DNA from: an archaeon
GTDB taxonomy: Archaea; Iainarchaeota; Iainarchaeia; Iainarchaeales; 0-14-0-20-34-12
Length of the DNA stretch: 51,670 bases
Direction of reading: 5' to 3'
Assembly (NCBI GenBank): GCA_038046645.1
Contig: JBBSVU010000001.1
Location: forward strand, 11,078-62,747
The position numbers and the translations under genes were made by a program. The notes under the pieces were generated by a model, which was given only the letters and a program-made list of their open reading frames with translations, did not search any database and was not told the DNA's origin. Shown here in pieces: positions 9,567-49,951 of the stretch (position 1 is the first letter of the stretch; each line of letters begins with the position of its first letter).

Positions 9567-12500
9567 ATGATTGGGGAAAAGTTAGCCGGAATATATGCTT
9601 CATTGGAAGAAAAATGGTATAACCTGCTTGATTTCCTAGAAAATAAAGGAATACCTGTTGGAACATACAGCAACTTCCTTGAAGGAAAAGGCATTCCTTC
9701 ATTTCCATTCACCTTAGGAATTATCATACTGATTATTGCAATATTATTTGTTTTATTCACGGCAACATCCGGCGTTTCATTAACTGTGCAGATTTCAATA
9801 AAGGATGATGCAGGCAATGGAGTAAACGGGGTACATCTTGTTGTGACAGATTCAAAAAATACTGTCCTAAAAGATACAAGTGTTAATGCAATTTCTACAA
9901 TTGATTTGGGGAATGTTCCTGTTGGCGCAGACTTAATTTTTTCAGCGACAAAGGATGGTTATGATGTAGGGATGTCTGAATTTCAGGTAACAAATATATC
10001 TGAAAACATTGAAATTGTCCTTGAAAGGCTTTTGAATTATATTGATGCTACAATAAAGCTTGCGAATAAGGATACTTCAGATCCGATAACGAATGCAATA
10101 GTAAAATTAGTGAGCGAGAATAAGGAATATATTGCAATTCCGCAGGATGATGGAACATTCTTTGTAAGCGGCATTCCGCAGAATGAGGACATAAAAATAA
10201 TTGTAGAAGCAGACGGTTATGAAACGTATGAGGATATTTATTCATTCAAGGAAGGGGAAACAAAACAAATCCCTTTATCGCCAAAAAGTATTTCATTTGC
10301 AGGAAAAACTAATTTGCTGATAGATGTTTTGGATATTGATACCTCAATCCCGATAAAGGATGTGCAGATAAAAATAATCAATTCAAAAACAAATGGAATG
10401 ATAAGTGAGTTAAAGGAAACAGATGGGCAATTCACAGGAAAGATTGAGACAGGCACGAGCATAAAATGGATTGTTTCAAAAGAAGGTTACCTTAGCGAGG
10501 AAGGCGGGCCTGAAACATTGGTAAGTGGGGAAAGGAAATTAAAAGTATTCCTGAAGAAGGGCGGTGAAGAATTAAATGTTTACCTATTAAACCAAATGGA
10601 ATTTCCAATAGCCGGGGGAACCGCTGGTTTGTACAATGAAAAGGCAGAATTCTTGGACAGCAATGTTACCGGCATCTCAGGTTCGGTAAAATTCCAAGGT
10701 TTAGACCCTAACAAAATATATTACATCACAGGGCATAAAGATGGATTCTTGCCAGCAAGAAAAAAAATCAGCGTTTCTGACATAAAAAGCATTTCACTTA
10801 AATTAGAGCCGATAAACGGGGAGAATTCAGCTACTTTATTAATCAGGGTTTTAGACCTGCAGGAAAAATCCGTAAATAATGCAGATGTTGTAATTTATGA
10901 AATATTGGATAATGAAACATTGCCTATGGGCTATGCGTCATTAAAAACAGATTTAACAGGCAAAACAACTGTAATTGCGCCTGTTGGAAAAACTCTCCTG
11001 GTAAAAGCAAGCAAGGGATTTGATGAGGGCAATGAAACAATTGTAATGCAAAAAGGCGCAACAAATGAGATAACAGTTTACATTGCACCAAAGGCCACAT
11101 TAATAACTTTAAATCTGAAGGATGAAAAAGGAAAAGCGATTGAGGGGATTGCAAAAATAATTTCAGTCACAGGCGATATTTTATTTGATGGGAATGTAAA
11201 GGACGGCAAGGTCATATTTGAGCCAAAGGAGAATGAAACCGGGATTTTACAATTGACCTTTGATGATGATTCCACATATGAGGAACAATTGGATTTCAAG
11301 GAGCAGAAAGGAAAGGAGATGGAAGTAACTATTTACAAAGATGCAGCAGAATTAGCACCCAAGATAGAATATTTAGGAATAGTAGATGATAAGGGAAATG
11401 AGGTAACTGGAATTACAAAGGAAAAATATTACTGGTTGAAATTCCAGTTGACAAGCGTTCCAAACATGAGTGAGACCGGTGTTCACATAAGGGTTGGAAA
11501 GGATAATGTTAAATTTGTTGATTCACAGGCAATTGCTATTTACGGATTTGACAGCACAGCACAGAAATTTACATTAGGCAGAACATACTCACCAATTCCA
11601 GAGCCAGGCAGCGAAGGGATTGACCGCAAGAATATCGGGTCAAACGGAAAGGCAAACAAATGGCTTGACCTTGTCTACAAAAATGCTGCTGATGTTGAAA
11701 TAATCAAAGTAAAGGTACTTGCAATGCAGACATTGCAGGAAGAAGAATTTGAAGTGCATTACCGCGCCTGGACAAACATAAAGAATGAATATTACAGGAC
11801 ACCGCATGATGATATCCTTGATAAGGCAAAATCCAGCCAGAAAAGGAACCCTTTATATGCAGAGACACTTACCCAAACAGTAAAGGTATTTGACAAGGAA
11901 GAATATGTGTGCAAGGAATCATTCTGCCTTACTTATGTTTTCTATGATGAATTCGGCAATAAATATGCAGAACAGGAATTCAGCCCAACAGTGAATAAAT
12001 CTTATGCTGTTGAATTTACCATATTTTCAAATGAAGATGGAACTGCAAAAGGAATCCTAAGCACAAATGCAAAAGAGCCTTCGCTTTCATATTCAGGATG
12101 GATTGAAGGTTCATTTGTGAATATTCCTGCTACATCAAATAAAGTATATGACCTTTCATTTGATTCTGCAGTAAGCCAGAAAGAAGGGAAAAAGATTACT
12201 GCGTTTTTCCTGCCTGACAAAGTAGGCTCTACATACATTAACCTGAAATTAGCATCAGGCGAAAAAGTGCTTGAGAAGAATCTGCTAGTGAATATTACTG
12301 AAGAAGGCATACTGAATATTGCTACAAAACCAAATGCAATTGCCTTGGGAAAACCATTTTGGATTGTAGTGAGCGATGCTGCTTCAGGAAAATTGCTTGA
12401 AAATTTAACTATTGTTATGACTGATGACAAAGGGAAAAATGTCAGCACAATCGCAGGGAATGGAACAAAGGACAAGGGATTAAACGGAGAATATGCAGCA

Positions 12501-15500
12501 GGCTCAGGATTGCAAACCGGCTTGTACCATATTGAAATAAACAACCCGAAATACAAGAAAGCTGTAAAGGATATTCTTGTTTCAAAGGATGATTTATTAT
12601 TTATCCAGCCAGAGGTAAAGGTTAATTTGGGTTATGGGGAACAGGCAAAGGCTGAAAAATTGCAGGTAGAAAATAAAAGCATCTTCAATATTTCAGCAAT
12701 AACCTATGAATTGCAAACTGATTCTGAATTTGACAATAACTTTAGCGTTAACCTTGCAGTAATGTCTGCAATTGATGCAGAGAAAAAAGGGATGTTTGAT
12801 TTAACTGTTACATATAAAGGAGATAAAGAATCAAGGATACATTCAGAAGCTGAATTAATAATCAGGGGAATGGTAAATGGGTTATTCCCTGTGCAGGCAA
12901 CAACAAAATTGATATTGAATTATAATAAAGAATTAGAAGAAGATTGTTTAGAGATAGAACAAAAACAGGTGGCATTTTCTTTAGTAGGAACTACGGGAAC
13001 GCAGAGCAAGGAAAAAATAAAGCTTATTAATAAATGCAAGGAAACTCTGAATTTGAAAACAGATATTGAGGGATTGAAAAGCAATTCAGGATTGGAAATT
13101 GGCGCGCCGGCTTTTGCATTAAAAGCAGGGGAAGAAAAGGAGATTGAATTAACTGCAATAAATAAAATAGACCGCATGTATTCACAGGCATTGCAGCAGG
13201 CATACAAACTTTATTTCAAATCAGCACAGCTCACAAAAAGCATCCCTTTAATGGTAATATTAAGGCATCCTTTGTACTTGCTGATGACTAATAATAATAT
13301 TGTGATGTGGCTGAATGAAAAGGACAATAAATGGGAAGCGAATGCCCAGCTTTATATGAGAAATGTTGGTGAAAAGCCAATCAGGTTCATCAGGTTTACA
13401 ACATTGAACAGGCCACAAAGCATATTTATTGAAACATCCAATTATCTGCAAAATTACATGGCAAATCCAAATCCCTGGGACACTGGTTCAGTAGGGCAGT
13501 CATATTTCGGCGCGATGAATCAGATGTATAATACTGGAATGCCGGCAGGCAGCAATTCTGGATATTTAAGCCCGCAATATGATCAATTTGGGACAAATAC
13601 TAATAATTTAGGTTATCCTAATTCAAGCAATCAAGCATTAGGCGGCGGATATCCATATTCCTCGGGCTTAAACCAAAATTCATTATATGGTTCAACTGGC
13701 ACAGGCTATCCATTCTTTGCCCAAAATATGACATTATTGCCTGGACAGGAATTAATGCCTCCTGCTACCATAAATGTTAAAGCAAATTCAATAAAGGAAT
13801 TGCAGAAAGGGCCGTTGCAGGCAAGCATTATGATAATGGGAAATATTGAAGGCAGGGATTATCCGCTAAGGGTTGTAAATGTATGGCTGTATGTAACAGG
13901 CACTGAATGTTTAAGGGTAGTAGCAAAAGAATCCCTGGATTTTGAAAGCAAGGAATCTAAGGAAGGGGTAATGACTAAAGACCTTGAAATATCAAATATG
14001 TGCGCTGAGGAATTAACCTCATTAACGCTTGAGACAACAAATTTAGGGGCAAATAAATTGTCAATAAACATGCCAGGCACAATGATTGGCCCAGGGCAAA
14101 AAATAGATGCACAGCTTGTGCTTGAAAAAGCCGGTGATTATAGTACTGGGGAATCTCCATTAAAAACAAAGGTAAAGGCATTAATGGTAAGAAGCCAGCA
14201 ATTTACTTATTCTGCTCCCCTAGATATAAGTGTTTTGCTTGGGGAGAAATTCGCAGCAAAGGGAAAAGCAACATTGGCTGAAAACCTGCAGATATGCGAC
14301 GAGAAAGAAGGAAAAACAAAATCAGTGAAATATCCTCTCATAAACAACAAAGATTGTGGCGAAGGGTATTGTGATGCTGAATCAATGGCTGCATATTTAT
14401 TAAAAAGGGCTGATGAAAAAATCAACCTTGTAAAGAAAAGGATAAAGGACGCGCAGAATGATGCAAGAAATTTCAGCTGTGCAAGGACTGATTTCTGCAC
14501 ATTCCCTGAATTAGGGGTATCGTCATCTTCGGTCGGGGCATTCTTGCAGAATGATTCTGTTACAGAGGATTTGCTACAGCACATAATTGAAAAGGATTAT
14601 ATGAATCTGAAAGGATTTGTAGTAAGGGCAAGGGATATCAGCGCTGAAGAATTAAGTTCTGCATTTGAAATCCGCACAGTATTAATCAGCTCAAACATGA
14701 TGGGCTGCGGAAAATATAAGATAACAATTTCCGGAGGAGCGCAAAGAACCGGAAATAAATTGAATGAAGAGGATTTGTCTGTTGTCATAAGTGTGGAAAA
14801 GGAATCTATTACAGAAGAATGCCAGCCAAGGGTTCAAAATACACTTAACTTCATGCCAAAGGACCTTTCATTGAATCCTGAGAATTCATTCAACACATGG
14901 TTAGGAACAGTAAGCCTGACTGAAGAAGGGCTTTCAAAAGAAAATAAAGAGGATTTGAAAAATATTGCACTTGAATTCGCAAGGAATTTATTCAACAGCG
15001 AAAAAAGATATGGTGAATACAACTCAAATGTATTAAGGGTTACTTTGGGCGATGCTGGCGGAGCTTTAATGAAAATAACTATGGATACAGGTTATGATCC
15101 TGATATGCCAGAAAAAAGAGAAGTAACTGTTACAATAAATAAAGAATATTTGAATGTTGCGGAACCAGAAAAGAAAAAACAGATACTTGCAGAGATTGCT
15201 GCTGCAATAAAATCCGTTGCTTCGCAGAAATATACTGGATGCATTTCAGAGGATGAAGGCACATTATTGATAAAGGATTTGCCAGAAGGAATAGGTTCAA
15301 TTGCATTAAAACCAGCAGAAAGAAAATTAGGGTTAAGGCAAAAGAATGAAAGCTGCGTTGATTTCAATGTTTTAGGAATCATAAAGGATATGGAAGTAGA
15401 AATGCATTCAAACTGGGAATCACTTGAAGGCAAATCAGGCATTTCAGATGTTTATTTCAAGGACATGAAAGGAAAAAAATTAAAAGAATACGGGGATGTT

Positions 15501-18416
15501 GCCAACGGAACATCAATTAAATTATCAGAGAAGGGAGAAAAGGGAGAATATTACCATACTATAAAATTCTGTGCAATCGGTTCTGAAGAAAGGATTACTT
15601 TGGCAACAGGCACACAATTGACAATTAAAGCAAGAAGCACAAGCATTGCAAAGCTTGAAAGCAATGAATCCATAATAAAGATTGAGGATTGCGGCATTGA
15701 CCCAATTACTTTAATGAAAAAGATAAAGGAAAGAATGAAGACTTTGAAGAATGGTGAATTTGTTGATACTTATGTGCCAAATGTAAGCTGGAACTGCAAT
15801 TCCTCAGATGTTGTTCCAATAGGAAAACTTGCAAATTATTTCACAATGGGATTCGGTTCAGGAAGCGGTAATGCTGCAGATACTAATGCAGGTTCAGCTG
15901 TTGGAAATGGTTCAGCTGCAGGAAATCCTACTGTGGCTGCACAGGGAAATGTTACTCCTAATGTTCCATATATGCAGCAGAAGGAAGCTGAGAAATTTAA
16001 TAATTCATTATTAAAATATACAATGCATTGCGCCTGGGCTTCTGGTGCATGCAATGCTGCTATTGGTTTCTGGAGAGGCGGCCCAATACTTGGAGCATTA
16101 TCAGGAATAGCTTTGGATTGTGCATTGCCTGCAGGAATAGCAAAATATGCAAGCGGAAATAAAACAGCCAAGGATGCAGCTGCACAGGTTACTGAATGGT
16201 TAAAAAATGTTCCAGACCCATCAACCGGATTTGGCGGCCCAGCAGTTTTGCCAGAATCACAGATGCAGCAATTAAATATGGGAAATTTATCTGAAGAGCA
16301 ATACAGAACATTGCTCGGAACATCAATTATAGGCACAACAACACAGTCATTGATAATGGGGATGAGAAGGTATAATGCTTACCTAAGCACAAAGAATTAT
16401 AACGATGTTGCAAACAAGATGTACGCACAGGCAAAGAAAGCATTTAATGCTGAATTATTTGACGGAAAAGCCCCGAAAAAAGTGCTTAATGAATTCGAGA
16501 AGATTTATCAGTCAAAAATAAAAGCAGCAGTGGAAAAGGCCGCAAAATCATGGTATTCAAAACCAGCAAAATTAACCGAACAATCAATTGCAGCTATAGC
16601 GAATGAAGCTACATCAGGCCTTGATGCCCATGCATTTGATGACATGACAAAAGAAATAATTAACCTAAGTAAAACAGGCGGCAAATTTGATATTGTAAAA
16701 TTAAAAAAATTAAGCCCGAAATTAGGAACTATTGTTGATGATGCAATAAAAGGGGCAAAAGGGCCCTCAAATATGGCTGGTTACTTAGTTGAACAGCACA
16801 TGAAAAAAGGTGTTTTGGAGGGGCTGCCAAAAACTGCACAAAAAACAATTGATTTGGATCCTGCAAGAGCAGCACAATTGGAAGCTGCATTAACAGCTAC
16901 TCCGCCAAATCTCACTACTGCAGCCAGCATCTATGATGGCTTCTTGGATGATGTTGCAAAAGCAAAAGGCAGAGATTTGGCTGAAGCAATGGTAAATAAT
17001 TTAGAAAAAAGCGCAGGCACTTCATTAAGCCAGGCATCAAGAAAAGAACTGGTAGATGAATTTATGGCCAAGGCAGTCCCGATATTGAAAGGCGGGGCAA
17101 AATATGATGTCGGTGGCACAGGAAAAGACCAGGCAAAGAAATTATTGAAAGCATTATTTGAATTAAACCAGGGGGCAAATATCTCAATACAAAATTTCAC
17201 GATGAGTATTGGCAACCTTGATATAACTGCTGCAACACAGCAGATGACAAAAATAAAAGCTACATTCCCTAAAGACCTTTTGGAATCAGCTGTCGGTGCT
17301 GGTGGCAGCGGAATGGTTTCAAAGATTGATGATTCAATAATAAAACAGCTTGGCGATTTAATGATTGAAATAACTGATGTTGATGGCACTGTTAAAAAAG
17401 TAAAATTAAGTGAAGTAGGCGACTTAAGCAAAAAAGCAGAAGACGCATTAAAGAAAGCATTTACTGAGGGGGATGCTGCAGGAAAAGCAGTCAAATCAAC
17501 AGAGGCAAAATGGTGGAAAAAAGTAAAGCCAAAGAATTTCTTAAAATTATTGGCAAAGCCTGGATTCTGGCTTGATATGGGTTTGGGATTAGGATGTGGA
17601 TTGGCTGCAAATTTAGCAGGATATTACTTAGGGTTTAAACCGACATGGGAAGAGATGACACAGGAAGAGGACAATAGCATACCAATAATTGTGGGATCTC
17701 AAGGGGTTAATGTTGACAAGGATGGGGATGGAAAGCCGGACCTGCAGTTAAAAGGCGAAGATAACATAATGAAAGGAAATTCATATGTTGTTACTGTTGG
17801 AAAGGATTCCAAAGGAAAGCCATATATTGCATTCAAGAAAGTAGATAGCAAACCAGAAACAGCAAAGGAAGAAATTGAAATGGATTGCACAGGCGCATAT
17901 AAAGATGTAAAACCAGTATTCGGCGGATTAAATGTTCCGGCAACAGCAGGCAATGCATTATTGGATGCATACAAGCAGCATGAAGCAGAATTGATATCTG
18001 CGGTTTCACTTGCAAAACAATATAATTCAAAGAATGAAATCAATGAAGCATTATTGGCTAGCTTGGCAATAACAGGCTCAGGGTTTGGAACATTTAACGG
18101 AAGCTCTTCTACCAGCCCTAAGGTTGACCTTGATGGAGACAGCAAGGTAGATTATATTGTTGCATGCGGAGCAAGCACAATGCCTGGCAGGGATAATGTT
18201 CCAAAGAATGATTCACAGAAGGATTTCTTGTGTGCTGCATATGAAATGTCAAGATTAGAGGTATTGAAGAATAATGCAATCGATGAATCTGCGCTTGCTG
18301 AATATTACAATAATATTTCACCGCAGTACAGGCACAGCTTAATCTCTAATGTTAATTCATATGTTGCAAATGTCAAAGCTATTTACAATACATGGAAAGG
18401 CTACCAGATAGAATAG
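9567..18416 (+). CDS. Giant membrane-anchored surface protein 1 (carboxypeptidase-regulatory-like/Ig repeats; toxin-like C-terminal extension)
   Basis: 2949-aa ORF; N-terminal YxxLEEKWY...IPSF plus TM helix; repeated xxKxGY Ig-like motifs; conserved blocks shared with three paralogs in the window. Confidence 0.9.
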   Translation: MIGEKLAGIYASLEEKWYNLLDFLENKGIPVGTYSNFLEGKGIPSFPFTLGIIILIIAILFVLFTATSGVSLTVQISIKDDAGNGVNGVHLVVTDSKNTVLKDTSVNAISTIDLGNVPVGADLIFSATKDGYDVGMSEFQVTNISENIEIVLERLLNYIDATIKLANKDTSDPITNAIVKLVSENKEYIAIPQDDGTFFVSGIPQNEDIKIIVEADGYETYEDIYSFKEGETKQIPLSPKSISFAGKTNLLIDVLDIDTSIPIKDVQIKIINSKTNGMISELKETDGQFTGKIETGTSIKWIVSKEGYLSEEGGPETLVSGERKLKVFLKKGGEELNVYLLNQMEFPIAGGTAGLYNEKAEFLDSNVTGISGSVKFQGLDPNKIYYITGHKDGFLPARKKISVSDIKSISLKLEPINGENSATLLIRVLDLQEKSVNNADVVIYEILDNETLPMGYASLKTDLTGKTTVIAPVGKTLLVKASKGFDEGNETIVMQKGATNEITVYIAPKATLITLNLKDEKGKAIEGIAKIISVTGDILFDGNVKDGKVIFEPKENETGILQLTFDDDSTYEEQLDFKEQKGKEMEVTIYKDAAELAPKIEYLGIVDDKGNEVTGITKEKYYWLKFQLTSVPNMSETGVHIRVGKDNVKFVDSQAIAIYGFDSTAQKFTLGRTYSPIPEPGSEGIDRKNIGSNGKANKWLDLVYKNAADVEIIKVKVLAMQTLQEEEFEVHYRAWTNIKNEYYRTPHDDILDKAKSSQKRNPLYAETLTQTVKVFDKEEYVCKESFCLTYVFYDEFGNKYAEQEFSPTVNKSYAVEFTIFSNEDGTAKGILSTNAKEPSLSYSGWIEGSFVNIPATSNKVYDLSFDSAVSQKEGKKITAFFLPDKVGSTYINLKLASGEKVLEKNLLVNITEEGILNIATKPNAIALGKPFWIVVSDAASGKLLENLTIVMTDDKGKNVSTIAGNGTKDKGLNGEYAAGSGLQTGLYHIEINNPKYKKAVKDILVSKDDLLFIQPEVKVNLGYGEQAKAEKLQVENKSIFNISAITYELQTDSEFDNNFSVNLAVMSAIDAEKKGMFDLTVTYKGDKESRIHSEAELIIRGMVNGLFPVQATTKLILNYNKELEEDCLEIEQKQVAFSLVGTTGTQSKEKIKLINKCKETLNLKTDIEGLKSNSGLEIGAPAFALKAGEEKEIELTAINKIDRMYSQALQQAYKLYFKSAQLTKSIPLMVILRHPLYLLMTNNNIVMWLNEKDNKWEANAQLYMRNVGEKPIRFIRFTTLNRPQSIFIETSNYLQNYMANPNPWDTGSVGQSYFGAMNQMYNTGMPAGSNSGYLSPQYDQFGTNTNNLGYPNSSNQALGGGYPYSSGLNQNSLYGSTGTGYPFFAQNMTLLPGQELMPPATINVKANSIKELQKGPLQASIMIMGNIEGRDYPLRVVNVWLYVTGTECLRVVAKESLDFESKESKEGVMTKDLEISNMCAEELTSLTLETTNLGANKLSINMPGTMIGPGQKIDAQLVLEKAGDYSTGESPLKTKVKALMVRSQQFTYSAPLDISVLLGEKFAAKGKATLAENLQICDEKEGKTKSVKYPLINNKDCGEGYCDAESMAAYLLKRADEKINLVKKRIKDAQNDARNFSCARTDFCTFPELGVSSSSVGAFLQNDSVTEDLLQHIIEKDYMNLKGFVVRARDISAEELSSAFEIRTVLISSNMMGCGKYKITISGGAQRTGNKLNEEDLSVVISVEKESITEECQPRVQNTLNFMPKDLSLNPENSFNTWLGTVSLTEEGLSKENKEDLKNIALEFARNLFNSEKRYGEYNSNVLRVTLGDAGGALMKITMDTGYDPDMPEKREVTVTINKEYLNVAEPEKKKQILAEIAAAIKSVASQKYTGCISEDEGTLLIKDLPEGIGSIALKPAERKLGLRQKNESCVDFNVLGIIKDMEVEMHSNWESLEGKSGISDVYFKDMKGKKLKEYGDVANGTSIKLSEKGEKGEYYHTIKFCAIGSEERITLATGTQLTIKARSTSIAKLESNESIIKIEDCGIDPITLMKKIKERMKTLKNGEFVDTYVPNVSWNCNSSDVVPIGKLANYFTMGFGSGSGNAADTNAGSAVGNGSAAGNPTVAAQGNVTPNVPYMQQKEAEKFNNSLLKYTMHCAWASGACNAAIGFWRGGPILGALSGIALDCALPAGIAKYASGNKTAKDAAAQVTEWLKNVPDPSTGFGGPAVLPESQMQQLNMGNLSEEQYRTLLGTSIIGTTTQSLIMGMRRYNAYLSTKNYNDVANKMYAQAKKAFNAELFDGKAPKKVLNEFEKIYQSKIKAAVEKAAKSWYSKPAKLTEQSIAAIANEATSGLDAHAFDDMTKEIINLSKTGGKFDIVKLKKLSPKLGTIVDDAIKGAKGPSNMAGYLVEQHMKKGVLEGLPKTAQKTIDLDPARAAQLEAALTATPPNLTTAASIYDGFLDDVAKAKGRDLAEAMVNNLEKSAGTSLSQASRKELVDEFMAKAVPILKGGAKYDVGGTGKDQAKKLLKALFELNQGANISIQNFTMSIGNLDITAATQQMTKIKATFPKDLLESAVGAGGSGMVSKIDDSIIKQLGDLMIEITDVDGTVKKVKLSEVGDLSKKAEDALKKAFTEGDAAGKAVKSTEAKWWKKVKPKNFLKLLAKPGFWLDMGLGLGCGLAANLAGYYLGFKPTWEEMTQEEDNSIPIIVGSQGVNVDKDGDGKPDLQLKGEDNIMKGNSYVVTVGKDSKGKPYIAFKKVDSKPETAKEEIEMDCTGAYKDVKPVFGGLNVPATAGNALLDAYKQHEAELISAVSLAKQYNSKNEINEALLASLAITGSGFGTFNGSSSTSPKVDLDGDSKVDYIVACGASTMPGRDNVPKNDSQKDFLCAAYEMSRLEVLKNNAIDESALAEYYNNISPQYRHSLISNVNSYVANVKAIYNTWKGYQIE

Positions 18417-18489
18417 AGTGTTATTTAGAAAAATATATAACCCATCAACAGACATTCAATAAAATAATGCAAAAAAAAGCCTGATAAAA

Positions 18490-22128: not shown

Positions 22129-22226
22129 ATACAAATTAAATCCAAAGGATTTAATTGTACACTTAAAGCTTGCTTTAAGTTGTAGTAAAGGATTATATTA
22201 TAGCCAAATATTTATGTCCTTTACTA
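22085..22226. repeat. Cluster of four consecutive inverted repeats at the 3' end of the adhesin gene
   Basis: TAGCAAAAGAC/GTCTTTTGCTA (22085-22127), AATTAAATCC/GGATTTAATT (22134-22156), ACTTAAAGC/GCTTTAAGT (22161-22180), TAGTAAAGGA/TCCTTTACTA (22183-22226). Confidence 0.7.
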
Positions 22227-22279
22227 TAGATTCTAACAAATAAATTTTTATTCAGAAGAACCTTATCTTATACGATAAA

Positions 22280-24007: not shown

Positions 24008-24034
24008 AAAAATATAAAATAAAAGAGGGTAACC

Positions 24035-32212: not shown

Positions 32213-32213
32213 A

Positions 32214-32241
32214 GTGTGCTGATTTATTTTATTCAGCACAC
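32214..32241 (+). terminator. Stem-loop directly after giant gene 2
   Basis: GTGTGCTGA-N10-TCAGCACAC beginning 2 nt after the stop; no U-tract follows on the + strand. Confidence 0.5.
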
Positions 32242-32310
32242 CAAAAAGCCAATAATAATAAAGTAAATAATAATATTTATTGGTTTATAATATATAGAAG
32301 AAATAGTAGA

Positions 32311-32375
32311 GTGCCAAAAGGCACAAAAATATTAAAGTGCCAAAGGCACAAAAAAACAGTGTTGGCAAGACACTG
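32311..32375 (+). promoter_or_regulatory. Structured 5' leader of giant gene 3 with duplicated hairpin
   Basis: GTGCC-AAAA-GGCAC (32311-32324), GTGCC-AAA-GGCAC (32337-32349) and CAGTGT-N7-ACACTG (32357-32375), downstream of a TTTATAATATA TATA-like box. Confidence 0.5.
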
Positions 32376-32438
32376 AAAAAAGGAACAATAAGAAAAATAA
32401 AAGCTGAAAAAAATAAAAAAAGGCGAGGTTAGATTGAT

Positions 32439-40466: not shown

Positions 40467-40471
40467 ATTTA

Positions 40472-40570
40472 TGTCAAAAACATGTCGGTTTTTGACAGAC
40501 AATGAATTCCATATTTGTGGAATTCTTTGGATTTGAATAATCAGCCAAATGGCTGATTATCTTTTTCTTT
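40472..40570 (+). terminator. Triple hairpin ending in a U-tract terminator after giant gene 3
   Basis: TGTCAAAAAC/GTTTTTGACA (40472-40497), GAATTCCAT/GTGGAATTC (40504-40525), ATAATCAGCC/GGCTGATTAT (40537-40560), then CTTTTTCTTT. Confidence 0.7.
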
Positions 40571-40611
40571 ATTTTTTCAATATTTTAGCCATATTTAGTT
40601 ATTACTAGAAG

Positions 40612-40662
40612 GTTACTTAAAAAAGTAACATTTATTAACTATTTGTTACTAAAATAAGTAAC
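40612..40662. promoter_or_regulatory. Paired palindromic operator GTTACT-N6-AGTAAC upstream of the ATPase
   Basis: Two perfect copies at 40612-40629 and 40645-40662, 33 bp apart, flanking a TTTATTAA box and just before the AAGGTGA RBS. Confidence 0.7.
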
Positions 40663-40677
40663 AAACAAGGTGATATT

Positions 40678-42168: not shown

Positions 42169-42310
42169 GTTATCAATATCTAATTCAGGCATAATTACCC
42201 AAGTAATCAATCACTTATGCTATTTCTTAAAGGTTAGTTATATAAATTATATAAATATATTAAATATAGCCAATTGCTTTAATTTGGCTAAATATAAAAT
42301 GGCTGGTACT

Positions 42311-45300
42311 ATGTCCCTGAAAGATAAATTTGAAGAAATAAAAATGAAAATTGCGGGTTTGGGAAGAAAAAAACTTGCAATGATTGGAATTGGAATACTG
42401 ATTTTGGCAATTGTTGGTGTTATACTTTTAAATCCACAAGGAGAGATTGCAAAAGGAAATGTAAAGGCTATTTTGACATTCAAGGATAATAAGGGAAATC
42501 TGCTTCCCAATATGAAAGTATCCTATTTGAAGGACAATCAGTGGAAATCAGGGAACACTGATACTCTAGGAAAATTAATCTTAAATGTGCCGGCGGAATC
42601 TGAACTGAAATTAAAGGCAGACGAATTTATATTAAACGGAAAGAACTATGGGAAATTTGAGAAAACGCTTTATATCGGGTCAGAAGATTTTAGTGAGTAT
42701 GTTACATTAAGCGAAAAAGGGGCTTCAGGGAAAACCACAGTCAGCTTGATTTTGCAGGGAACAACTGGACTGCTTGAGGGCGAGGACTTTACCCTATCTT
42801 TTTCATGCTCAAATACAACAGACACTTGGCAGGAATCAGGAAAAGGGCCTGCAATCACTACCCAAGTGCCATTAAATTGCGGAAAATTAAATGTGAATAT
42901 TTTATCAGACAAGTATGAGAATGCCACAGTAATAATGCTTGAAGGCGAGAAAGACAAATTAATTAACCTGGTTGAAAAGCCTACTCCTAACGGAACTCTT
43001 GTTGTAAATGTTGTTGATGAAACTGGAGGGATACTTACTGGAACAAACTTTGGAATAAGCATTTATGGAGACAATGGTGTTGAGCTTGAGGATTATACAT
43101 TAGAATATGGGTTTGTCACATTTAACTTGGCGCCAGGAACATATAATGTTGCAATAAAGGATCCGAAAAAAGATTATGGCTCTAATAATGTTTCAGGCAT
43201 TGTTGTTTATTCAAAGAAAACAGAAACAGTTGATATCCCGACAAGCAAGGAAAAAAAGGCAACAATAAAAGTGTATGCTGTTGACAAGGACAATAAACAA
43301 GTAATAAAAGGCGCAAAGGTAATTTTGAAGGATTCAAAAAATAAAAATGTTGATGAGGAAAATACAACAGAAACAGGCAAGGTCGTAGAATTTGCAGTTT
43401 ATGATGTAAAAGATTACAAAATATATGCAAAGAAAGAAGGCGGATTGGAAGAAGGTTATTATTCAAATAATGTTGATATAAATGCAACTGAATTCGGAGA
43501 TTTGAAGGAGATAACAAAAACTGTTGAGCTTGAAAAAATTACTGCCTCAAATTCAGGAAAAGTAAAAGTAACAGTAAAGGATGAGGATGGCATTCCTGTA
43601 AAAAATGCCCAAGTAAGGTTTATGGTTAAAGGGTTTATTGAAGATGGCTCTGAAGATTATCTGATGGAAATGCCAATCGCTTCCATAAAACAGTTTACAA
43701 ATGCAAATGGTGAAGTAGAATATATTTTGGGCGGAAGTGAAGCTACAGAAAAAGAAATTTATCCTTATGTCACAAAACCTCCGGCTTATTTCAAAGACAG
43801 GGCATTAGCAAAGAAAATCCTAATTACTGAAGACAATCTATTTGATGTGACAATGATTATCGGAGATGCAACCATTGAGCTTGAGGCAAAGGATAAAGAG
43901 ACAAAGCAATTGATTTCAGGGATAAAATATGAGATGTATTCCTATGATGGAAAATTGATTGTTTCCGAAAATGAAATGCCTGAGGGAAAAACTACCTTAA
44001 CAGTGAAAGCAGACAAAAGAGTGTACTTTTTATTTAAGCATCCGCAGTATATGCCTTTGCAGAGCAGGGTGCTGAATCTGGTGCAGGGGCAAACATTTAA
44101 TGTTTTGGCATTAATGTCTCCGCCATATGCCGGAGAAAATCCTAAGATTGAATTAGAGGGAATTTATGAAAAAGGCGGTGCTTTTGCAAATTCACTTTTA
44201 TACGGAAAGGAATATGAATTCAGGTTTAAATTGACTTCACCAGAAAAACCATTGTACCAGTTAGGAATGCATTTCCGAACCGGGGATTCATTCATACTGC
44301 AAAATGATGGAATACAGATAAACGGTGGCGAGGATTCAATCAATGCAGGCAATATGCCTTCAATAACTAGAGGGGAAACCTATCAGGAGGGAGCAGTTGA
44401 AGAAATACCTACTGAAGGAAAATCAAAATGGGTAAACATAGTTTGGACGAATCCAAATTATCAGGAATACTCAATTGGAATTGTTGTAAAGGTTACAAAA
44501 CCAAGCGCATTTATTCCAGTGTTCTGGAGAACCTGGGCAATTGCATCAGAGAATCAATTGTATTTGAGAGATCCTCTAGATGATGTTTTGGGAACAGCAG
44601 AAACAAATGCAGGAAAAAAAGCGCTCTATGCTAACACATATACTGCGGAATTATATGAAGGCAATCCATTGCAGTGCGGTGAAAAGGAAGATGGTTTAAA
44701 ATCAGACCAGTTCTGCTGGGGCAATGAGAAATTATACGGAAAAGACCCTTTAACAAAGCAGGATTTATATTATGAATATGCAAGCAATTATCCGCTTGTG
44801 ATTTTATCGGATTATGATTTCTCGTTCAGCATACAGAATGCTTCAACGATAAAATACCAGCAATATAAGATGATTATAAAAAGCACAAAGGATGTTTTAA
44901 AGGTAAAAAGTTATGAATTGACAAATGCTGATTCAAAGGTTGAAACAGTTGATGCATTAACCGACAATTACAATATTGAATTAGAAAATTTGGGCGATTT
45001 TTCATATAAGAAAAATATCGCAATAAAAATGAAATTGCAGGCAATAGAAAAAGGATCGGCAAATATTGAAATTTATCTGATGGGGGATAATGCACCAATA
45101 GAAGGGATGTATCCTTACACAGTAAATTTCAGCGTGCTGTCAGAGAAAAACCTGAAAATAATACTGAAAGAGCCTACTGGAGAATCGTTGCCTGCTTATT
45201 CAGACCAGCAGCTTATTTTGGAAATACGGGATGAAAAAGGCGATTTCGTAATAAATAATGCAATAGTTATTGTTGACAGAAAGCATCCAGATTATGAAAC

Positions 45301-48300
45301 TCCATACCATATTAACACAGTACTAAGCGGAGACTCAGATAAGGGCTGGGATGATGGAATTGCAAAGGTAAATATCCCAAGCACAGCGCCAAAAAGCATA
45401 ATAAAAGTAAAGGCAGTAAAAGAGGATTATGCCCCTGCTTATTTAGATATTGCAGTATCAGACCAGATTATGAAATTTGACCCTTCACCATTCAGCTTCA
45501 AATTGAATGTTGTGAATAAAGCAGCGCATGAGAATTTCCAGTCATTCAATGTGATAAACCAGACAGGGAGTGATTTCTCAATTACCTCTTTGAAATATGA
45601 CAAAATTGGCGGGGATTACAATGATTATATCGGATTATTGAATATTGAGGCAATGCAAAATTACTTGAACAATGAAGCTATTGGCGGGCAGGCATTGCCT
45701 GTCAAAATTAAAGGCAATGAGGCAAAGCAGTCAAAGGCAAAGGCAATATTAAGCGATGAAGCTGAAAACATTTTATACAACCTGCAAAAGGCAAATGTGA
45801 ATATTGAAAGTGGAAAATTAATTATAAAATTAGAGAATAATGATGCTTTTTTATCCGCCCCATACTTGCAGGAAGTCCCAATCGACCCAATAAGCATAAA
45901 TTATGGCGATGTGCCAACAGAGGATTGTGTAAGGTTAACTGCTTTGGGCGGTGCAGATGTAAAGAACTGGGTTGCCGGCACATTAAATGATGATGCTATA
46001 CTTGAATTTGAATTGCAAAATACCTGCGGCGTAGATTTGGAAGGAATAAGATTCCAGCTTCTCACTAATGGAGAATCAATGCCAGGGGATGCAGCAATAA
46101 ATATTGAAAGCGGCTTAATCACAGATCCATTAATCATGAATTTCAAGCAGGATTTCATGTTCCCATTCTCAAGCGTGCAGGAAACAGGGAAAACATATCT
46201 CGGAAAATTAATATACAAACCAAAAGAAGGGACAGAAGGGTTAACTGCGAATTTCACAGTAAATGTCTGGGGCTTGGTAAAAGCTGCAAGCCCATCCGGT
46301 GAGATAGGTTTGCTTGAGGTAATTTCAAACCCAACAGCAATTGAGGCGCATGTAACAAACATAAATCTATTCAGCTGCCTGGATTATTATAAAGCAAGCG
46401 GAAGTTCCGGTGACAGAAAAATAGAATTAACTGAGGGAGGAATGCCATCTGATTCAAGTTATAAAGATTCTTTTATGGTAACAAATGACTGTAAAGTTCC
46501 CATAGAAATTATTTTATGTAAAGGAGACACAAAATGCAACGGCAATTTAAAGGAAGGTGGAGGATTAGACTTATCAAAAGCCGCAAACTCCAAATTCACA
46601 ATTAATTCAGAAGCCGACGGTGCAGTTGTTGAAGTAAGCAGATTAGACTACAATCCTAATGCCGGAGACCAGGAAACTGCAGTTGGATTATATGGAATAA
46701 CAATCTGGGCAAAACCAAAGAATCTTGTTACGGAATTTGTAAACCTAGGCTCAATGGAGGTTGAAATAAAGCCAGGGCAATCAGACTGGTTCTTTTTGGA
46801 TAATTACGAATCAGATATCTTTGCTGTCGGAGAAGGCACAGCATCATCAGATATTTTCTTGCTGAAAAATACCCAATTTGTACAACAGCCATTTGGAGTA
46901 GAAGCAAATGAATGCACCTGGGAAGACTGGACAACAGAATATTTGGAATGGTATGATACTGAGGGAGCGGAAGGTACAATAATGGCTGCATCAGTAATAA
47001 CCGCAGTTGTTGCTGGGACAGCTACTGTGGTATTAGCTGCAGCAGTAGCAACTGCCACTACTGCAGCATCAGTTAGTGCATTAGGAGGTCCATATGGCAT
47101 AGCAATTGGTGCTGCAATAGTGGTAACTGCGTTAACTGTAGCATTGCTTTGTGCCTGGGTATTCTGTAGCTGTGATTCCGGTGATTATAGCACAAAAGAA
47201 AATTTCAAGGATTATAAAATAAAGCTAGGGAATGAACCTGGTGAATTTAATCCATGCAGCCCAAGTTCTGCAGAATGCATAAAAGATTGTGACACAGGAA
47301 ATGATTTCGCAGATTGCTATGTTGATTGTAAAGGAAAGTACAAGACATGCGTAGAAGAAGCTGCAGACCAAAAAACACCGCACAGGGATTTAGCATACAG
47401 TGATTCTGATTTCTTGAATTGTAATTTAATTTTAGGGAATGGATTAGATAGCATAAGCACAACCTGCGATCAAAGCTTTGCAGACATTGAATCAAAAATA
47501 AGTGATGACAAAGCGCAAATGATTATGGATCCAGCAGGCAGTTCTATCACTGGGAGTATTGAAAACCCAGTATGGGAACAACTTTGGGCAATGCCAATTA
47601 AAGGTTCAGATATTGACAGCCTAAAGAATGAAACAGCTTATGGTTTATTGCAGGTAAGCAGCGAATGGGAAGACAATTATGGTGAAACAGTAAGGTGTGA
47701 AGAAAATACATTTGATGTGTATAGAGTAGGAACATCAGATGCAGAAGGCCAATGTGAAATAAAGGGAGAGGGAACAACAACAAAAGCAATGCACCTAAAA
47801 TTCAACGGAGTAAAACCAAAGGCCGGACCTTTGCCTAAATTAAATGTAGACCAATGTGAAGGCGGAGGAGTTACAGGTGAAGGGGCAGTTCCAAAGGTAA
47901 GGTTCAACTGGGGCTGGAGTGATGACATTGATACAGGACAAGGAGTTCCAATTGATTACTGCGAGGCAAACAAGGATGAAGGTAAAGAAATTTACTGTGA
48001 TGCAACGCAATTCAGCATAATGCTTTCAAAGAGATTGTTCAAATTGGATGAATTCCTAAAAGCAAATACTGATATTTCATGCCCTGAGAATTGGCAGCAG
48101 AAAGCCATTATCGAAGGCTGTGAAAAAGTAAATGAAGAAAACGGTTTAGGGATAATTAATGCTGGCAGCATAGGCATAAAATCAGTAAAATTATCTTCAA
48201 CAGCATACCCTTACCTAAAGGTAGATGTAAATATTGAAAATAAATCAAATACAGATTACACTGATTCGGTAACTTATGAAGGTACTACCGGACAAGGAGC

Positions 48301-49951
48301 TATACTTTTAATTGTAATTGGAACAAGCAGCGGGGATGACAGCAAATCAATATATGTTCCAACAGGAATAATAAACAAAAAATCAAGTGTAGAGGTAAGC
48401 CATACATTTGAGGTTAGCAGCTGGGGTTCTTATTTCGCAACCGCAAGCATAATGGAACCAGGTGCTATTGCAACAGACAAGGATAATGCCTTGAAAGGCT
48501 GCGTATATGTAAATCCAATAACTCCGCAGGGATGCTGGTTGCCATATACTACTGCGCCCTTAAACAACAAAATGACTTTGGAATATTTCATAGACAAGGA
48601 TATTCCGTCAGTAGGGCAATACATAAATGGGGGAAACCCGGAAGGATTCACAATAAATTGGCCATCTGGCTGGAAGGAAGAAGAAGAGAATTTAGATTAT
48701 TTAAGAAGCTTGATGATATTCGATGCTTACTTAATGAGGGATGGATATACTCCAGACTTTTACTCTGATTTCGTTGATTATTACCAAAAGAATGCATTCT
48801 TCCAGGCAGGAGATTCATTCAATTTTATAAGCCCTTATTTATTGAAGACTCCGGAAAAGTTTGAAGTATTGAGAGAAGGATGGTATAATGAAGGGCAAAG
48901 AATTGTAGGAATGCCTGGAAAATACAGCGTAAAAGTAAATGCTATGTTTGATAACGAAAAATGGGCATTCAAAACAGGCGATGAATTGAATGCAAAAATA
49001 ATAACATATTTGCATAAGCTGCAAGGCCCTGGCTTTGACCCTGGAATGGCACTTTATTATCTGCCATTTGATGCAAAGATAGGGAAAGATACAGCGCAAG
49101 GAAGATATAATTATGGAACAGAATTTGAATTAGACAATGACATTGACTTTTATATAAATAGTGTTGTAGTAAGCAGTGAACCAATAAAACTTGAGCCAAT
49201 AAGCACTGAATCACAGCCAATAAGCAACCTTAAGTTGAACAAGGAAACAGACTTTAAAAGAATAAACCAGATGCCTGACCGCGGATTATTGCTTGAGATA
49301 AACCCGTTGGATGATGCATATAAAGACTGGTATTTGACATTCTTCCCGAGCGGGTATGCTACAACTGTTTTGAAGATGGGCATAAATGAACAGAGCACTG
49401 ATCCATTTACTGTGCATTATCAGTTATACCAAGGTGCAGAAAATCTAATGGATACAGGCGCTTCTTTAACCTCTTGGTATGGATTGGGGCAATGTTTGGA
49501 TTTCACCGGAGAGCCAATCGGCGAGGTATTTAACAGGACAGCAGACAAAAAGGTTGATGTTACAAACAGCCATTACGGCATAGAATGGGAAAAAGGAAAT
49601 AATTTGGGAAACATCTATCTAGGAAGCGTATTATTTGTGCCAGAAGGAGAGAGCGGATATTCATTAAAGGCAATAGAACCGGATGCATTGAAATTCTATG
49701 ATGCCCAAAGGCAGGAACAGACATCAGTTGCCCTTACTGCAATGAATGAAGAGGAAATAAATTACCTTAATGTGCTATTCCAGAAGATTAGGGAAAAGAA
49801 GGTTTGCATAAGAAATACTTCAGACAGTGGATTGCAATTATATTGGAATGTGCAAAAAATCTTTGAAACTATCGATCCGTTAACGACAATAAAGCAGGAT
49901 TTGGATGATCCAAATTTCGGAGATTTGAAATGCATAGGAAGTTCAAGCTAA
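42311..49951 (+). CDS. Giant membrane-anchored surface protein 4 (paralog; long hydrophobic hairpin)
   Basis: About 2550-aa ORF (open from 42284; ATG at 42299 or 42311 more likely); N-terminal TM; shared motifs KADKRVY, HFRTG, RDPLD, YCDATQF, LYWN; lacks the LEDKWY leader. Confidence 0.9.
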   Translation: MSLKDKFEEIKMKIAGLGRKKLAMIGIGILILAIVGVILLNPQGEIAKGNVKAILTFKDNKGNLLPNMKVSYLKDNQWKSGNTDTLGKLILNVPAESELKLKADEFILNGKNYGKFEKTLYIGSEDFSEYVTLSEKGASGKTTVSLILQGTTGLLEGEDFTLSFSCSNTTDTWQESGKGPAITTQVPLNCGKLNVNILSDKYENATVIMLEGEKDKLINLVEKPTPNGTLVVNVVDETGGILTGTNFGISIYGDNGVELEDYTLEYGFVTFNLAPGTYNVAIKDPKKDYGSNNVSGIVVYSKKTETVDIPTSKEKKATIKVYAVDKDNKQVIKGAKVILKDSKNKNVDEENTTETGKVVEFAVYDVKDYKIYAKKEGGLEEGYYSNNVDINATEFGDLKEITKTVELEKITASNSGKVKVTVKDEDGIPVKNAQVRFMVKGFIEDGSEDYLMEMPIASIKQFTNANGEVEYILGGSEATEKEIYPYVTKPPAYFKDRALAKKILITEDNLFDVTMIIGDATIELEAKDKETKQLISGIKYEMYSYDGKLIVSENEMPEGKTTLTVKADKRVYFLFKHPQYMPLQSRVLNLVQGQTFNVLALMSPPYAGENPKIELEGIYEKGGAFANSLLYGKEYEFRFKLTSPEKPLYQLGMHFRTGDSFILQNDGIQINGGEDSINAGNMPSITRGETYQEGAVEEIPTEGKSKWVNIVWTNPNYQEYSIGIVVKVTKPSAFIPVFWRTWAIASENQLYLRDPLDDVLGTAETNAGKKALYANTYTAELYEGNPLQCGEKEDGLKSDQFCWGNEKLYGKDPLTKQDLYYEYASNYPLVILSDYDFSFSIQNASTIKYQQYKMIIKSTKDVLKVKSYELTNADSKVETVDALTDNYNIELENLGDFSYKKNIAIKMKLQAIEKGSANIEIYLMGDNAPIEGMYPYTVNFSVLSEKNLKIILKEPTGESLPAYSDQQLILEIRDEKGDFVINNAIVIVDRKHPDYETPYHINTVLSGDSDKGWDDGIAKVNIPSTAPKSIIKVKAVKEDYAPAYLDIAVSDQIMKFDPSPFSFKLNVVNKAAHENFQSFNVINQTGSDFSITSLKYDKIGGDYNDYIGLLNIEAMQNYLNNEAIGGQALPVKIKGNEAKQSKAKAILSDEAENILYNLQKANVNIESGKLIIKLENNDAFLSAPYLQEVPIDPISINYGDVPTEDCVRLTALGGADVKNWVAGTLNDDAILEFELQNTCGVDLEGIRFQLLTNGESMPGDAAINIESGLITDPLIMNFKQDFMFPFSSVQETGKTYLGKLIYKPKEGTEGLTANFTVNVWGLVKAASPSGEIGLLEVISNPTAIEAHVTNINLFSCLDYYKASGSSGDRKIELTEGGMPSDSSYKDSFMVTNDCKVPIEIILCKGDTKCNGNLKEGGGLDLSKAANSKFTINSEADGAVVEVSRLDYNPNAGDQETAVGLYGITIWAKPKNLVTEFVNLGSMEVEIKPGQSDWFFLDNYESDIFAVGEGTASSDIFLLKNTQFVQQPFGVEANECTWEDWTTEYLEWYDTEGAEGTIMAASVITAVVAGTATVVLAAAVATATTAASVSALGGPYGIAIGAAIVVTALTVALLCAWVFCSCDSGDYSTKENFKDYKIKLGNEPGEFNPCSPSSAECIKDCDTGNDFADCYVDCKGKYKTCVEEAADQKTPHRDLAYSDSDFLNCNLILGNGLDSISTTCDQSFADIESKISDDKAQMIMDPAGSSITGSIENPVWEQLWAMPIKGSDIDSLKNETAYGLLQVSSEWEDNYGETVRCEENTFDVYRVGTSDAEGQCEIKGEGTTTKAMHLKFNGVKPKAGPLPKLNVDQCEGGGVTGEGAVPKVRFNWGWSDDIDTGQGVPIDYCEANKDEGKEIYCDATQFSIMLSKRLFKLDEFLKANTDISCPENWQQKAIIEGCEKVNEENGLGIINAGSIGIKSVKLSSTAYPYLKVDVNIENKSNTDYTDSVTYEGTTGQGAILLIVIGTSSGDDSKSIYVPTGIINKKSSVEVSHTFEVSSWGSYFATASIMEPGAIATDKDNALKGCVYVNPITPQGCWLPYTTAPLNNKMTLEYFIDKDIPSVGQYINGGNPEGFTINWPSGWKEEEENLDYLRSLMIFDAYLMRDGYTPDFYSDFVDYYQKNAFFQAGDSFNFISPYLLKTPEKFEVLREGWYNEGQRIVGMPGKYSVKVNAMFDNEKWAFKTGDELNAKIITYLHKLQGPGFDPGMALYYLPFDAKIGKDTAQGRYNYGTEFELDNDIDFYINSVVVSSEPIKLEPISTESQPISNLKLNKETDFKRINQMPDRGLLLEINPLDDAYKDWYLTFFPSGYATTVLKMGINEQSTDPFTVHYQLYQGAENLMDTGASLTSWYGLGQCLDFTGEPIGEVFNRTADKKVDVTNSHYGIEWEKGNNLGNIYLGSVLFVPEGESGYSLKAIEPDALKFYDAQRQEQTSVALTAMNEEEINYLNVLFQKIREKKVCIRNTSDSGLQLYWNVQKIFETIDPLTTIKQDLDDPNFGDLKCIGSSS

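Follow-up and report, generated by a model that had tools for sequence, protein, structure and literature searches.

We describe four giant surface proteins, G1 to G4, encoded in a 51,670-nucleotide stretch of archaeal DNA (hereafter the window: positions 11,078 to 62,747 of the forward strand of contig JBBSVU010000001.1, assembly GCA_038046645.1) from the order Iainarchaeales of the Iainarchaeota (Diapherotrites). The four-giant set is vertically inherited, keeps a fixed place near polB and is not the product of a local expansion, and since its gene content is maintained across the order, the locus probably has a central part in the dealings of these cells with their surroundings. What might such a set of proteins do? 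We consider the chances to be about even that G1–G4 represent an order-wide cell-surface contact system that is aimed at bacterial walls. Anchored by their N-termini, the giants would project tens of nanometres from the cell as extended fibres, with further beta-sandwich domains after a conserved mid-block, and their distal ends would bind a partner cell. That partner would be a bacterium, because the tips of some G1 proteins carry domains that cut murein and, to our knowledge, archaea have no murein. The tip of the window's own G1 would grip murein rather than cut it, since its catalytic Glu appears to be lost, and the C-terminal modules of G2–G4 may serve as ligand-binding heads. The four open reading frames (ORFs) make up 32,724 bp, or 2.8%, of the 1,169,422-bp assembly (G000; 25 contigs, 89% complete); relatives carry similar labels (G002, G012 and so on).

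Anatomy of the four giants

All four genes, and the parts of them given here, lie on the + strand. G1 (9567-18416, 2949 aa) comprises, from the N-terminus, a leader motif and transmembrane (TM) helix, a stalk of immunoglobulin (Ig)-like domains, the mid-block (11364-11966), a YCDA motif, a G1-specific distal half and a tip domain of ~200 aa (17814-18413). G2 (24035-32212, 2725 aa) and G3 (32439-40466, 2675 aa) share the leader motif, TM helix, Ig stalk and mid-block (25820-26434 and 34290-34898, respectively), which are followed by a low-complexity stretch in G2 and a Cys-rich insert in G3, and both end in a C-terminal module (29882-32209 in G2; 38286-40463 in G3, the last 449 aa being 39117-40463). 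G4 (42284-49951, 2555 aa, with a TTG start) runs from the TM helix, Ig stalk and mid-block (44150-44737) through a putative hydrophobic hairpin (46967-47155) and a Cys-rich stretch to a module of the same kind (47771-49948). An earlier note on this DNA, made from the sequence alone, had described four co-oriented giants with ordered shared motifs, an N-terminal TM helix, Ig-like repeats and a different insert distal to each stalk, and each part of this description held up.

On the Kyte-Doolittle scale (19-aa peaks), the TM helix reaches 2.98-3.14 between residues 31 and 64 in all four proteins. The stalk consists of about six transthyretin-like Ig domains; its repeats matched Pfam CarboxypepD_reg (PF13620) with 50.6 bits in G1, 128.5 in G2 and 56.6 in G3 (cut-off 32.3), while G4, with 27.6 bits, stayed under the cut-off. 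The ~200-aa mid-block that follows is common to all four and was matched four times in the window's genome, each time in a giant. BLASTP homology spans the N-terminal 800-1300 residues in all pairs (E values: G2–G3 4e-79, G2–G4 3e-32, G3–G4 6e-34, G1–G2 2e-18, G1–G4 8e-10, G1–G3 1e-6). Located by regular expression, the shared motifs are collinear in G1, G2, G3 and G4: HxRxG at 640, 636, 658 and 663; KW at 697, 691, 712 and 714; L[Y/F]A at 763, 763, 783 and 781; C...[F/W]C at 782, 780, 800 and 798; and [Y/F]CD[A/G] at 1601, 2013, 2043 and 1904. The motifs [Y/W]R (731, 731 and 747) and RxPxD (744, 744 and 762) were found in G1, G2 and G4; the gaps in G3 correspond to the variants DWRAY and NFPED at the aligned columns of an alignment with 17 invariant columns. 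The motifs that the earlier note had limited to giants 2–4 were likewise found there solely, with ADKxVY at 550, 566 and 576, DG[YF]..DF..DF at 2290, 2260 and 2153, YxP[FV]D at 2386, 2365 and 2259, and the terminal [VI]C[VI]...WN at 2702-2713, 2630-2643 and 2507-2519.

The leader motif, a stretch of ~45 residues in front of the TM helix (...Y..hE[DE]K[WY]Y..hD.h....hPhY.hhDPhD.hhPSF), is present in 48 of 59 giants from 16 genomes (12/13 G1, 14/14 G2, 12/14 G3 and 10/18 G4) and has been lost from the window's G4. A hidden Markov model of it matched, in the window's genome, G1, G2, G3 and one 1475-aa Ig-repeat protein, and nothing else. The motif may act in targeting or assembly, or through a cytoplasmic partner. 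The 1475-aa protein (G000:C23:736-5160; leader-motif E 3.6e-24) has neither mid-block nor C-terminal module.

Distal to the stalk, the giants differ. G1 and G2 have low-complexity stretches rich in G, N, Q, Y and M (residues ~1290-1400 of G1, window ~13435-13770; residues ~1215-1370 of G2, window ~27680-28150), and G2 additionally has a Cys/Lys/Glu-rich stretch. The G2 orthologs of G021 and G026 likewise show Y/N/G-rich stretches in the segments inspected, and the low-complexity stretches lie at about the same place as the hydrophobic or Cys-rich inserts of G3 and G4. The insert of G3 is Cys-rich and flanked by two Gly-rich hydrophobic segments, residues 1479-1497 and 1759-1777 (36873-37769 in all). 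In G4, residues 1562-1624 form a hydrophobic block with a 19-aa peak of 2.58. In 16 of 18 G4 orthologs, a Gly/Ala-rich block of 45-65 residues upstream of the module reaches a peak of at least 1.9. Conserved motifs flank this block, C.W[ED]EA on one side and [DE]..C[DH] on the other; its length would fit a helical hairpin, the base of which could be stapled by the flanking Cys. The membrane concerned may be the archaeon's own or that of the partner. In G3 orthologs the insert varies and is often rich in Cys, the Gly-rich segments beside it being less hydrophobic (maximum 1.82; 0/14 reach 1.9), and G2 orthologs lack the block (maximum peak 1.59). The earlier note had proposed membrane-active tips for the giants in general. 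A conserved hydrophobic element does exist; because it occurs at this strength in G4 only, it is a feature of one paralog and not of all, and the clearest signal of activity is instead directed at the wall, on the G1 proteins of nine genomes.

The Cys-bearing C-terminal module of ~700 aa relates G3 to G4 (BLAST E 6e-34) and G2 to G3 (3e-4), and G2, G3 and G4 each match its profile with E<=1e-217. The window's G1 gave no match to the profile at E<=1e-5; a weak collinear match near the YCD helix was found in 7 of 13 G1 orthologs (domain E 0.02-4.2), the window's not among them. For the whole G3 module (predicted local distance difference test, pLDDT, 80.7; predicted template modelling score, pTM, 0.71), matches in the PDB were confined to an Fn3/Ig-like sandwich at residues 138-269, with Z up to 9.5. 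The last 449 aa of G3 modelled alone (30 rows; pLDDT 86.7, pTM 0.84) matched none of 48,161 PDB representatives at Z>=5; Foldseek found no match at E<=1e-3 in the PDB and none in a viral library, the ESM Atlas offered no usable match, and a sequence profile of the module against the PDB returned chance rows only (E>=0.54). Since a best Z of 7-8 is usual for models that lack a clear Foldseek match, the last domain as predicted is unusually isolated structurally, and such an absence of matches is no proof of a new fold. Its best weak neighbours were SdrD (Z 3.5, root-mean-square deviation 3.6, 105 residues) and, by Foldseek, PitA (E 2.1e-3), and nearly all were Gram-positive adhesins or pilins (SdrD, PitA, Sgo0707, ACE, CNA, RrgB and SpaD), a likeness that we take as a hint only, because all Z values were <=3.5. 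A prediction of the last domains of G3 and G4 as a complex (449 + 436 aa; 10 + 17 rows) scored 0.00, which is no answer and speaks neither way. Apart from the Ig repeats, scans of G1–G4 matched no family of Pfam or NCBIfam, and no PDB relative emerged by sequence or fold. The family is thus uncharacterized, prior characterization being one of the grounds on which the earlier note's proposal would have fallen.

Conservation and descent of the locus

How old is this arrangement? We compared the regions around the giants in 15 other genomes, representing at least 13 families, by calling ORFs and matching them with the window's proteins. The order G1, G2, G3, G4 was found in all 12 regions that reach far enough, and each giant finds its best match in its own counterpart; G4-type copies number two in three genomes, and in one case G3 is split. 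Between G1 and G2, a homolog of the large pilin-like protein p492 (22280-23758, +; 492 aa) is present in 11 of 12 regions, and G1 and p492 are adjacent in four further loci. Upstream of G1, BLAST detected a homolog of the archaeosortase-family membrane protein (7989-8645, +) in 8 of the 12 G1-containing regions and in 3 of the 4 further G1–p492 loci. Directly after G4, the window encodes a small polytopic membrane protein, p126 (50865-51245, +); with its G030 ortholog as query, homologs were found right behind the last giant in 12 genomes, including the window's. Next come a 495-aa protein without known family and then polB with an M24 peptidase gene, polB being found downstream in 11 of the 15 regions as well as in the window's own genome. 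Conservation of the paralog set and of its synteny with the pilin-like gene, which the earlier note had named in advance as a check, is thus strongly borne out.

Some details of the region vary. A membrane protein of ~150-170 aa with four TM helices is encoded between G2 and G3 in seven other genomes; this gene seems to have been lost from the window's genome, because the gap between G2 and G3 (32213-32438) is only 226 bp long. Downstream of polB and the M24 peptidase gene, the window's genome has a free-standing 398-aa ORF (G000:C1:70947-72143) that matches LAGLIDADG_3 (36.1 bits), and the polB ORF of G014, at 1255 aa against the usual ~800, may contain an intein.

A maximum-likelihood tree (LG+G4 model, quick search) was built from 46 C-terminal modules over 672 columns, leaving out the G3 module of G002b, which is cut at the locus end, and the G2 module of G031, a short match. 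All 13 rows of G3 modules formed one clade (Shimodaira–Hasegawa-like approximate likelihood ratio test, SH-aLRT, 99), as did all 18 of G4 (SH-aLRT 98), and a branch with SH-aLRT 100 separated the 13 G2-type modules, together with two short secreted paralogs of the window's genome, from the other rows. Because G3 and G4 form single clades, the paralogs are ancient and non-redundant, older than the families sampled and kept one-to-one.

Within the order, 184 of 196 genomes carry the module, and none of the 19 genomes from elsewhere in the phylum does; whole-genome searches detected it in 38 of 41 relatives, and 55 of the phylum's 58 high-quality genomes have it. For the mid-block the counts are 177 of 196 within the order, a good genome usually giving 4-6 matches, and 3 of 19 outside it. 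Among 1.84 billion representative proteins, a module profile of five rows matched 672 at E<=1e-3 and 217 at E<=1e-30; the best 150 matches are mostly 2200-3250 aa long, with the module at the very end. Of 32 shorter members, 31 have no Pfam family at E<=1e-5 and thus offer no informative fusions; these shorter proteins are probably fragments. A word-indexed search returned 10 giant relatives, one titled as a Candidatus (Ca.) Diapherotrites carboxypeptidase-like regulatory domain-containing protein, and four proteins, query included, for the G1-specific half. Across 32 related loci, every title that names a taxon gives Ca. Iainarchaeum/ainarchaeum or Diapherotrites, the others saying just 'archaeon', which fits the DPANN origin presumed by the earlier note. 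The stretch or part of it was found as contigs in 15 of 16 listed sequencing runs, those labelled being groundwater metagenomes; no RNA run with it was among the 16, and all 15 are marked 'DNA?'.

Murein hydrolases on G1 and the genes around the giants

We scanned 12 G1 tips and found murein hydrolases above the Pfam cut-offs in two of them, namely Amidase_3 (62.0 bits) with Glucosaminidase (43.0 bits) in G019 and Amidase_2 (103.6 bits) in G016. Of the 196 genomes of the order, five have an Amidase_2 match (four of the seven matches lie in ORFs no shorter than 2321 aa), 24 a Glucosaminidase match (9 over the cut-off) and 60 an SLT match (58 over the cut-off). Matches to SLT, Amidase_2 or Glucosaminidase fell in 13 ORFs of at least 1900 aa. 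Ten of these were inspected (those of G173, G082 and G032 lie outside this set), and nine proved to be G1 orthologs, including the giants of G012 (46.1 bits), G018 (54.4 bits), G052, G043 and G045 with SLT matches. Seven hydrolase-bearing G1 loci were fetched; p492 lies downstream in four, three of which also have G2. The tenth ORF, from a sister genus (G002:C10 2797-9759, −; 2321 aa; Amidase_2 62.7 bits, SLT 37 bits), has no BLAST similarity to G1–G4 and represents a second, unrelated kind of giant murein-directed protein.

What of the window's own G1? In a single MAFFT alignment of 20 G1 tips, the window's tip and six others align with the SLT-bearing tips, and in these seven the catalytic E-S is replaced by G-S, K-T or similar; the window's tip reads ...LAITGSGFG where SLT-positive orthologs read ...DKESS or ...ETESS. 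A scan of its genome for SLT (PF01464, GH23; cut-off 21.3 bits) gave five matches, none of them in G1. A G2-type module is found in two secreted proteins of the same genome, one of which has an SLT-like stretch and an HExxH motif.

The gene between G1 and G2 suggests a link to a pilus. The N-terminus of p492, MNIKGFNLFTALV, with the cleavage-type pattern MNIKG/FNLFTALVAIILILL, has the short basic start, the Gly/Ala at −1 and the hydrophobic helix of a class III (type IV pilin-type) signal peptide, and all 11 printed orthologs begin [KRA][GA]F[TN][LPM]FTAL. The window's genome has two Peptidase_A24 prepilin peptidase genes (52.4 and 50.2 bits). We assign p492 to no named pilin family, because its NCBIfam ComGF match reaches 17.3 bits against a cut-off of 80. 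In G030, G034 and G016, a pilus-like operon lies divergently upstream of G1; besides a T2SSE ATPase (70.9 bits) and the latter's 770-aa partner, it comprises six small pilin-like ORFs of the KGQ type and one protein of ~1100-1600 aa. The ATPase is also found at the region edges in G017, G026 and G031. In the window's genome, the ATPase, within a 1279-aa ORF, and the 770-aa partner are on the 9.4-kb contig C19 (998-7188, −), and small pilin-like ORFs with a 1604-aa protein are at C1:21-11203, just upstream of the window. The operon is probably adjacent to the giants here too, inverted relative to that of G030 and split by a contig break.

The earlier note had counted a pilin-like protein, an archaeosortase, an adhesin and a metallopeptidase among the genes of the cluster. 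The first is confirmed by the signal peptide of p492 and the second by a TIGR04178 signature of 42.9 bits (cut-off 23); models of archaeosortase subtypes were missed (ArtD 35.6 bits against 125). The giants were considered as its substrates and rejected, as they have no C-terminal tripartite signal and none of the four ends is hydrophobic. A substrate may instead be the 205-aa protein (7391-8008, +), which as read from sequence has a signal peptide, a C-terminal TM helix and a basic tail, and matched no Pfam or NCBIfam family. The adhesin does carry PKD domains: this 1212-aa surface protein (18490-22128, +), with a signal peptide and C-terminal TM helix, matched a K319L-like PKD model with 85.7 bits; it has no homolog in the 15 other regions. 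The metallopeptidase, a secreted or membrane protein of 1731 aa (2196-7391, +), has a C-terminal HExxH region, its Peptidase_M64 score of 19.5 bits is below the cut-off of 26, and it too has no homolog in the 15 other regions and is not kept at the locus. Between G3 and G4 lies an AAA_14/DUF4143 ATPase gene (40678-42168, +; AAA_14 124.8 bits, DUF4143 68.6 bits); no other region has a gene there, and the one homolog, in G026, lies beside G1. The PKD protein and the ATPase were considered and rejected as parts of the system, and because neither has a counterpart at the corresponding place in the 15 other regions, we regard both as lineage-private inserts. 

Two small overlapping genes, 8745-9029 and 9008-9346 (+), separate the archaeosortase gene from G1 at the head of the locus, the latter of the two with a YgiT-type zinc-finger N-terminus (19.4 bits, just short of the cut-off of 20.2); the pair looks like a toxin-antitoxin-type insertion. 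Near the start of the window, a 416-aa ORF (222-1472, −) without family match has an extremely charged, His/Glu/Arg/Gly-rich N-terminal half, and the first 2 kb have a higher GC content (0.389) and a reversed GC skew.

A proposed contact system weighed against other readings

Several observations weigh against a contact system aimed at bacterial walls. In the window's G1, residues 1501-2949, scanned in three pieces, gave no Pfam hydrolase or SLT row at E<=5, a profile search of the tip against the PDB gave 0 matches at E<=10, and hhalign aligned the tip with the genome's own SLT-like protein and with the G016 tip at probabilities of 0.6 and 0.4, respectively. Its kinship with SLT is therefore a lead, resting on one alignment that the profile tests do not confirm. 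Because a recognizable G1 hydrolase occurs in 9 of 196 genomes, a wall-directed role may be limited to some lineages, and because SLT is common on small proteins (60 of 196 genomes), murein enzymes need not involve the giants. The Diapherotrites have also been argued to be free-living (PMC5905446). Lastly, universal, vertically inherited, N-anchored, Ig-rich proteins would equally fit a structural envelope.

This last point leads to the main rival, namely that the giants are the main structural envelope, an S-layer (surface layer)-like canopy or stalk layer in which the four paralogs co-assemble and the hydrolase tips of G1 are add-ons; we regard it as unlikely though plausible. The near-universality of the module, the fixed core-genome place beside polB, the N-terminal anchors with their Ig-like arrays, the acidic isoelectric points (4.6-5.4) and the adjoining archaeosortase gene would all suit such a layer. 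So would the absence of an S-layer protein of another kind, and a search for the MSTP type (PF07752) gave no match at E<=0.01 in this 89%-complete genome, the search being confined to this type and its Methanosarcina control positive. A preprint assigns MSTP-like S-layer proteins to several DPANN phyla (10.1101/2024.05.28.596244). Other features fit a wall poorly. The giants have no C-terminal archaeosortase signal, N-glycosylation sequons are sparse in them (0.5-1.2 per 100 aa), and murein hydrolase tips and a pilin-like partner gene are unexpected of a wall. Most S-layer proteins known so far are shorter than about 1700 aa. The review PMC5744192, moreover, describes S-layers as consisting of one or two proteins, against four conserved proteins of 2200-3400 aa here.

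Alternatively, each giant might be a fibrillar adhesin in its own right, binding particles, biofilm matrix or kin cells, with no dedicated partner or joint assembly, the gene order being the relic of an old tandem duplication. Anchor, stalk and head are indeed the general plan of bacterial fibrillar adhesins, to which the nearest weak fold neighbours of the last domain belong, and tandem giant genes are described also in Apilactobacillus kunkeei (PMC12863079). We nevertheless find this decidedly doubtful: four orthogroups maintained one-to-one in at least 13 families, with few losses or extras beyond the G4 duplicates, point to non-redundant roles, and the murein-specific domains of G1 give a specific target in nine genomes. 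Might the target then be killed rather than held? On this account the giants would be surface-tethered lysins, an antibacterial weapon and not a symbiosis device, that destroy competing bacteria on contact. Bona fide lytic domains on G1 orthologs are in its favour, and the title of PMC12352652 states that archaeal peptidoglycan hydrolases kill bacteria, its abstract offering an approach to infer archaeal targeting of bacteria. We hold a weapon to be highly unlikely, however, as the window's G1 tip and 6 of the 11 other tips scanned align without a catalytic Glu, killing does not need a lysin to be tethered to a ~2900-aa fibre, and Pfam and NCBIfam scans found no lytic domain in G2–G4.

In literature searches aimed at the giants and at this lineage, we found no published description of the family, although members from the Iainarchaeota may figure in the family tables of PMC8204110. 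The closest in print is one sentence on a related archaeon, Ca. Forterrea multitransposorum, which credits it with five membrane-anchored proteins, each larger than 1,800 aa, within 42 kb of its genome (Probst and Banfield 2018, PMC5905446). That sentence gives no family definition, orthology, domains or test, and the comparison with G1–G4 is one of description. Because the module was found in 0/19 and the mid-block in 3/19 genomes outside the order, the Forterrea proteins may be only distant relatives. DPANN proteins of up to ~3000 aa with an SLT-type domain have been described in Pacearchaeota/Woesearchaeota, with the proposal that they attach to bacterial walls or degrade them and that they point to bacterial hosts (PMC8204110, 2021). 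They resemble the G1 orthologs of G012, G018, G052, G043 and G045, in which SLT likewise sits in a giant ORF. The likeness is again one of description, and the paper confines the family concerned (fam00969) to Pacearchaeota/Woesearchaeota, whereas the present giants are from Iainarchaeota. The hydrolase of G1, moreover, varies in type (SLT, Amidase_2, Amidase_3 or Glucosaminidase) and is undetectable in the window, and G1 is one of a fixed set of four giants with a pilin-like gene.

Two further systems are, by Pfam domain tests, analogues and not relatives. The SPEARE proteins of Nanohaloarchaeota (Hamm et al. 2019, PMC6642349) are giant, mostly extracytoplasmic, membrane-anchored proteins with adhesion domains and a proposed role in host contact; like G1–G4, they account for several per cent of a genome of ~1 Mb, and that study also remarked on accompanying type IV pilus-like genes. 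They differ in having a serine protease, laminin-G, a cytoplasmic type III restriction-enzyme region and a mostly C-terminal anchor, in contrast to the N-terminal one here, and none of the SPEARE-defining domains was found in G1–G4 by Pfam at E<=0.01. Giant1-5 of A. kunkeei are encoded by five consecutive genes for extracellular proteins of 3000-8000 aa that amount to ~6% of a 1.5 Mb genome (PMC12863079), and they share with G1–G4 an elongated form with a binding domain at one end. Those proteins are bacterial, with an N-terminal beta-solenoid head and with recombination and exchange between genera, whereas G1–G4 are ancient vertical orthogroups with an unmatched head. As for the Gram-positive fibrillar and pilus-tip adhesins (SdrD, PitA, CNA, RrgB, SpaD), the anchor-stalk-head plan is shared, but the giants have no sortase motif, an N-terminal TM anchor and no match at Z 5.

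Returning to contact with bacteria, how might the parts work together? We speculate that G1–G4 could combine with the pilin-like protein and the small membrane proteins into one cross-domain docking machine, in which a filament draws the cells together, G1 grips or cuts murein, the heads of G2 and G3 bind envelope ligands and the Cys-stapled hairpin of G4 inserts into the bacterial membrane, giving a bridge for metabolite uptake. This fuller scheme strikes us as rather improbable. The earlier note had likewise inferred subunits of one large envelope structure, an assembly that found no support in the analysis. If it were true, the Iainarchaeota would be episymbionts or predators of bacteria, and their apparatus would be unrelated to the secretion and fusion systems described so far.

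We know of no cultured member of the Iainarchaeota (Diapherotrites). The 449-aa head domain, the leader motif and the hydrophobic hairpin could supply reagents for binding assays, antibodies and labelling in cryo-electron tomography. The murein-cutting tips of G1 constitute a testable lead to a bacterial partner, and would extend to this lineage a kind of cross-domain association that has so far been proposed for Pacearchaeota/Woesearchaeota alone.

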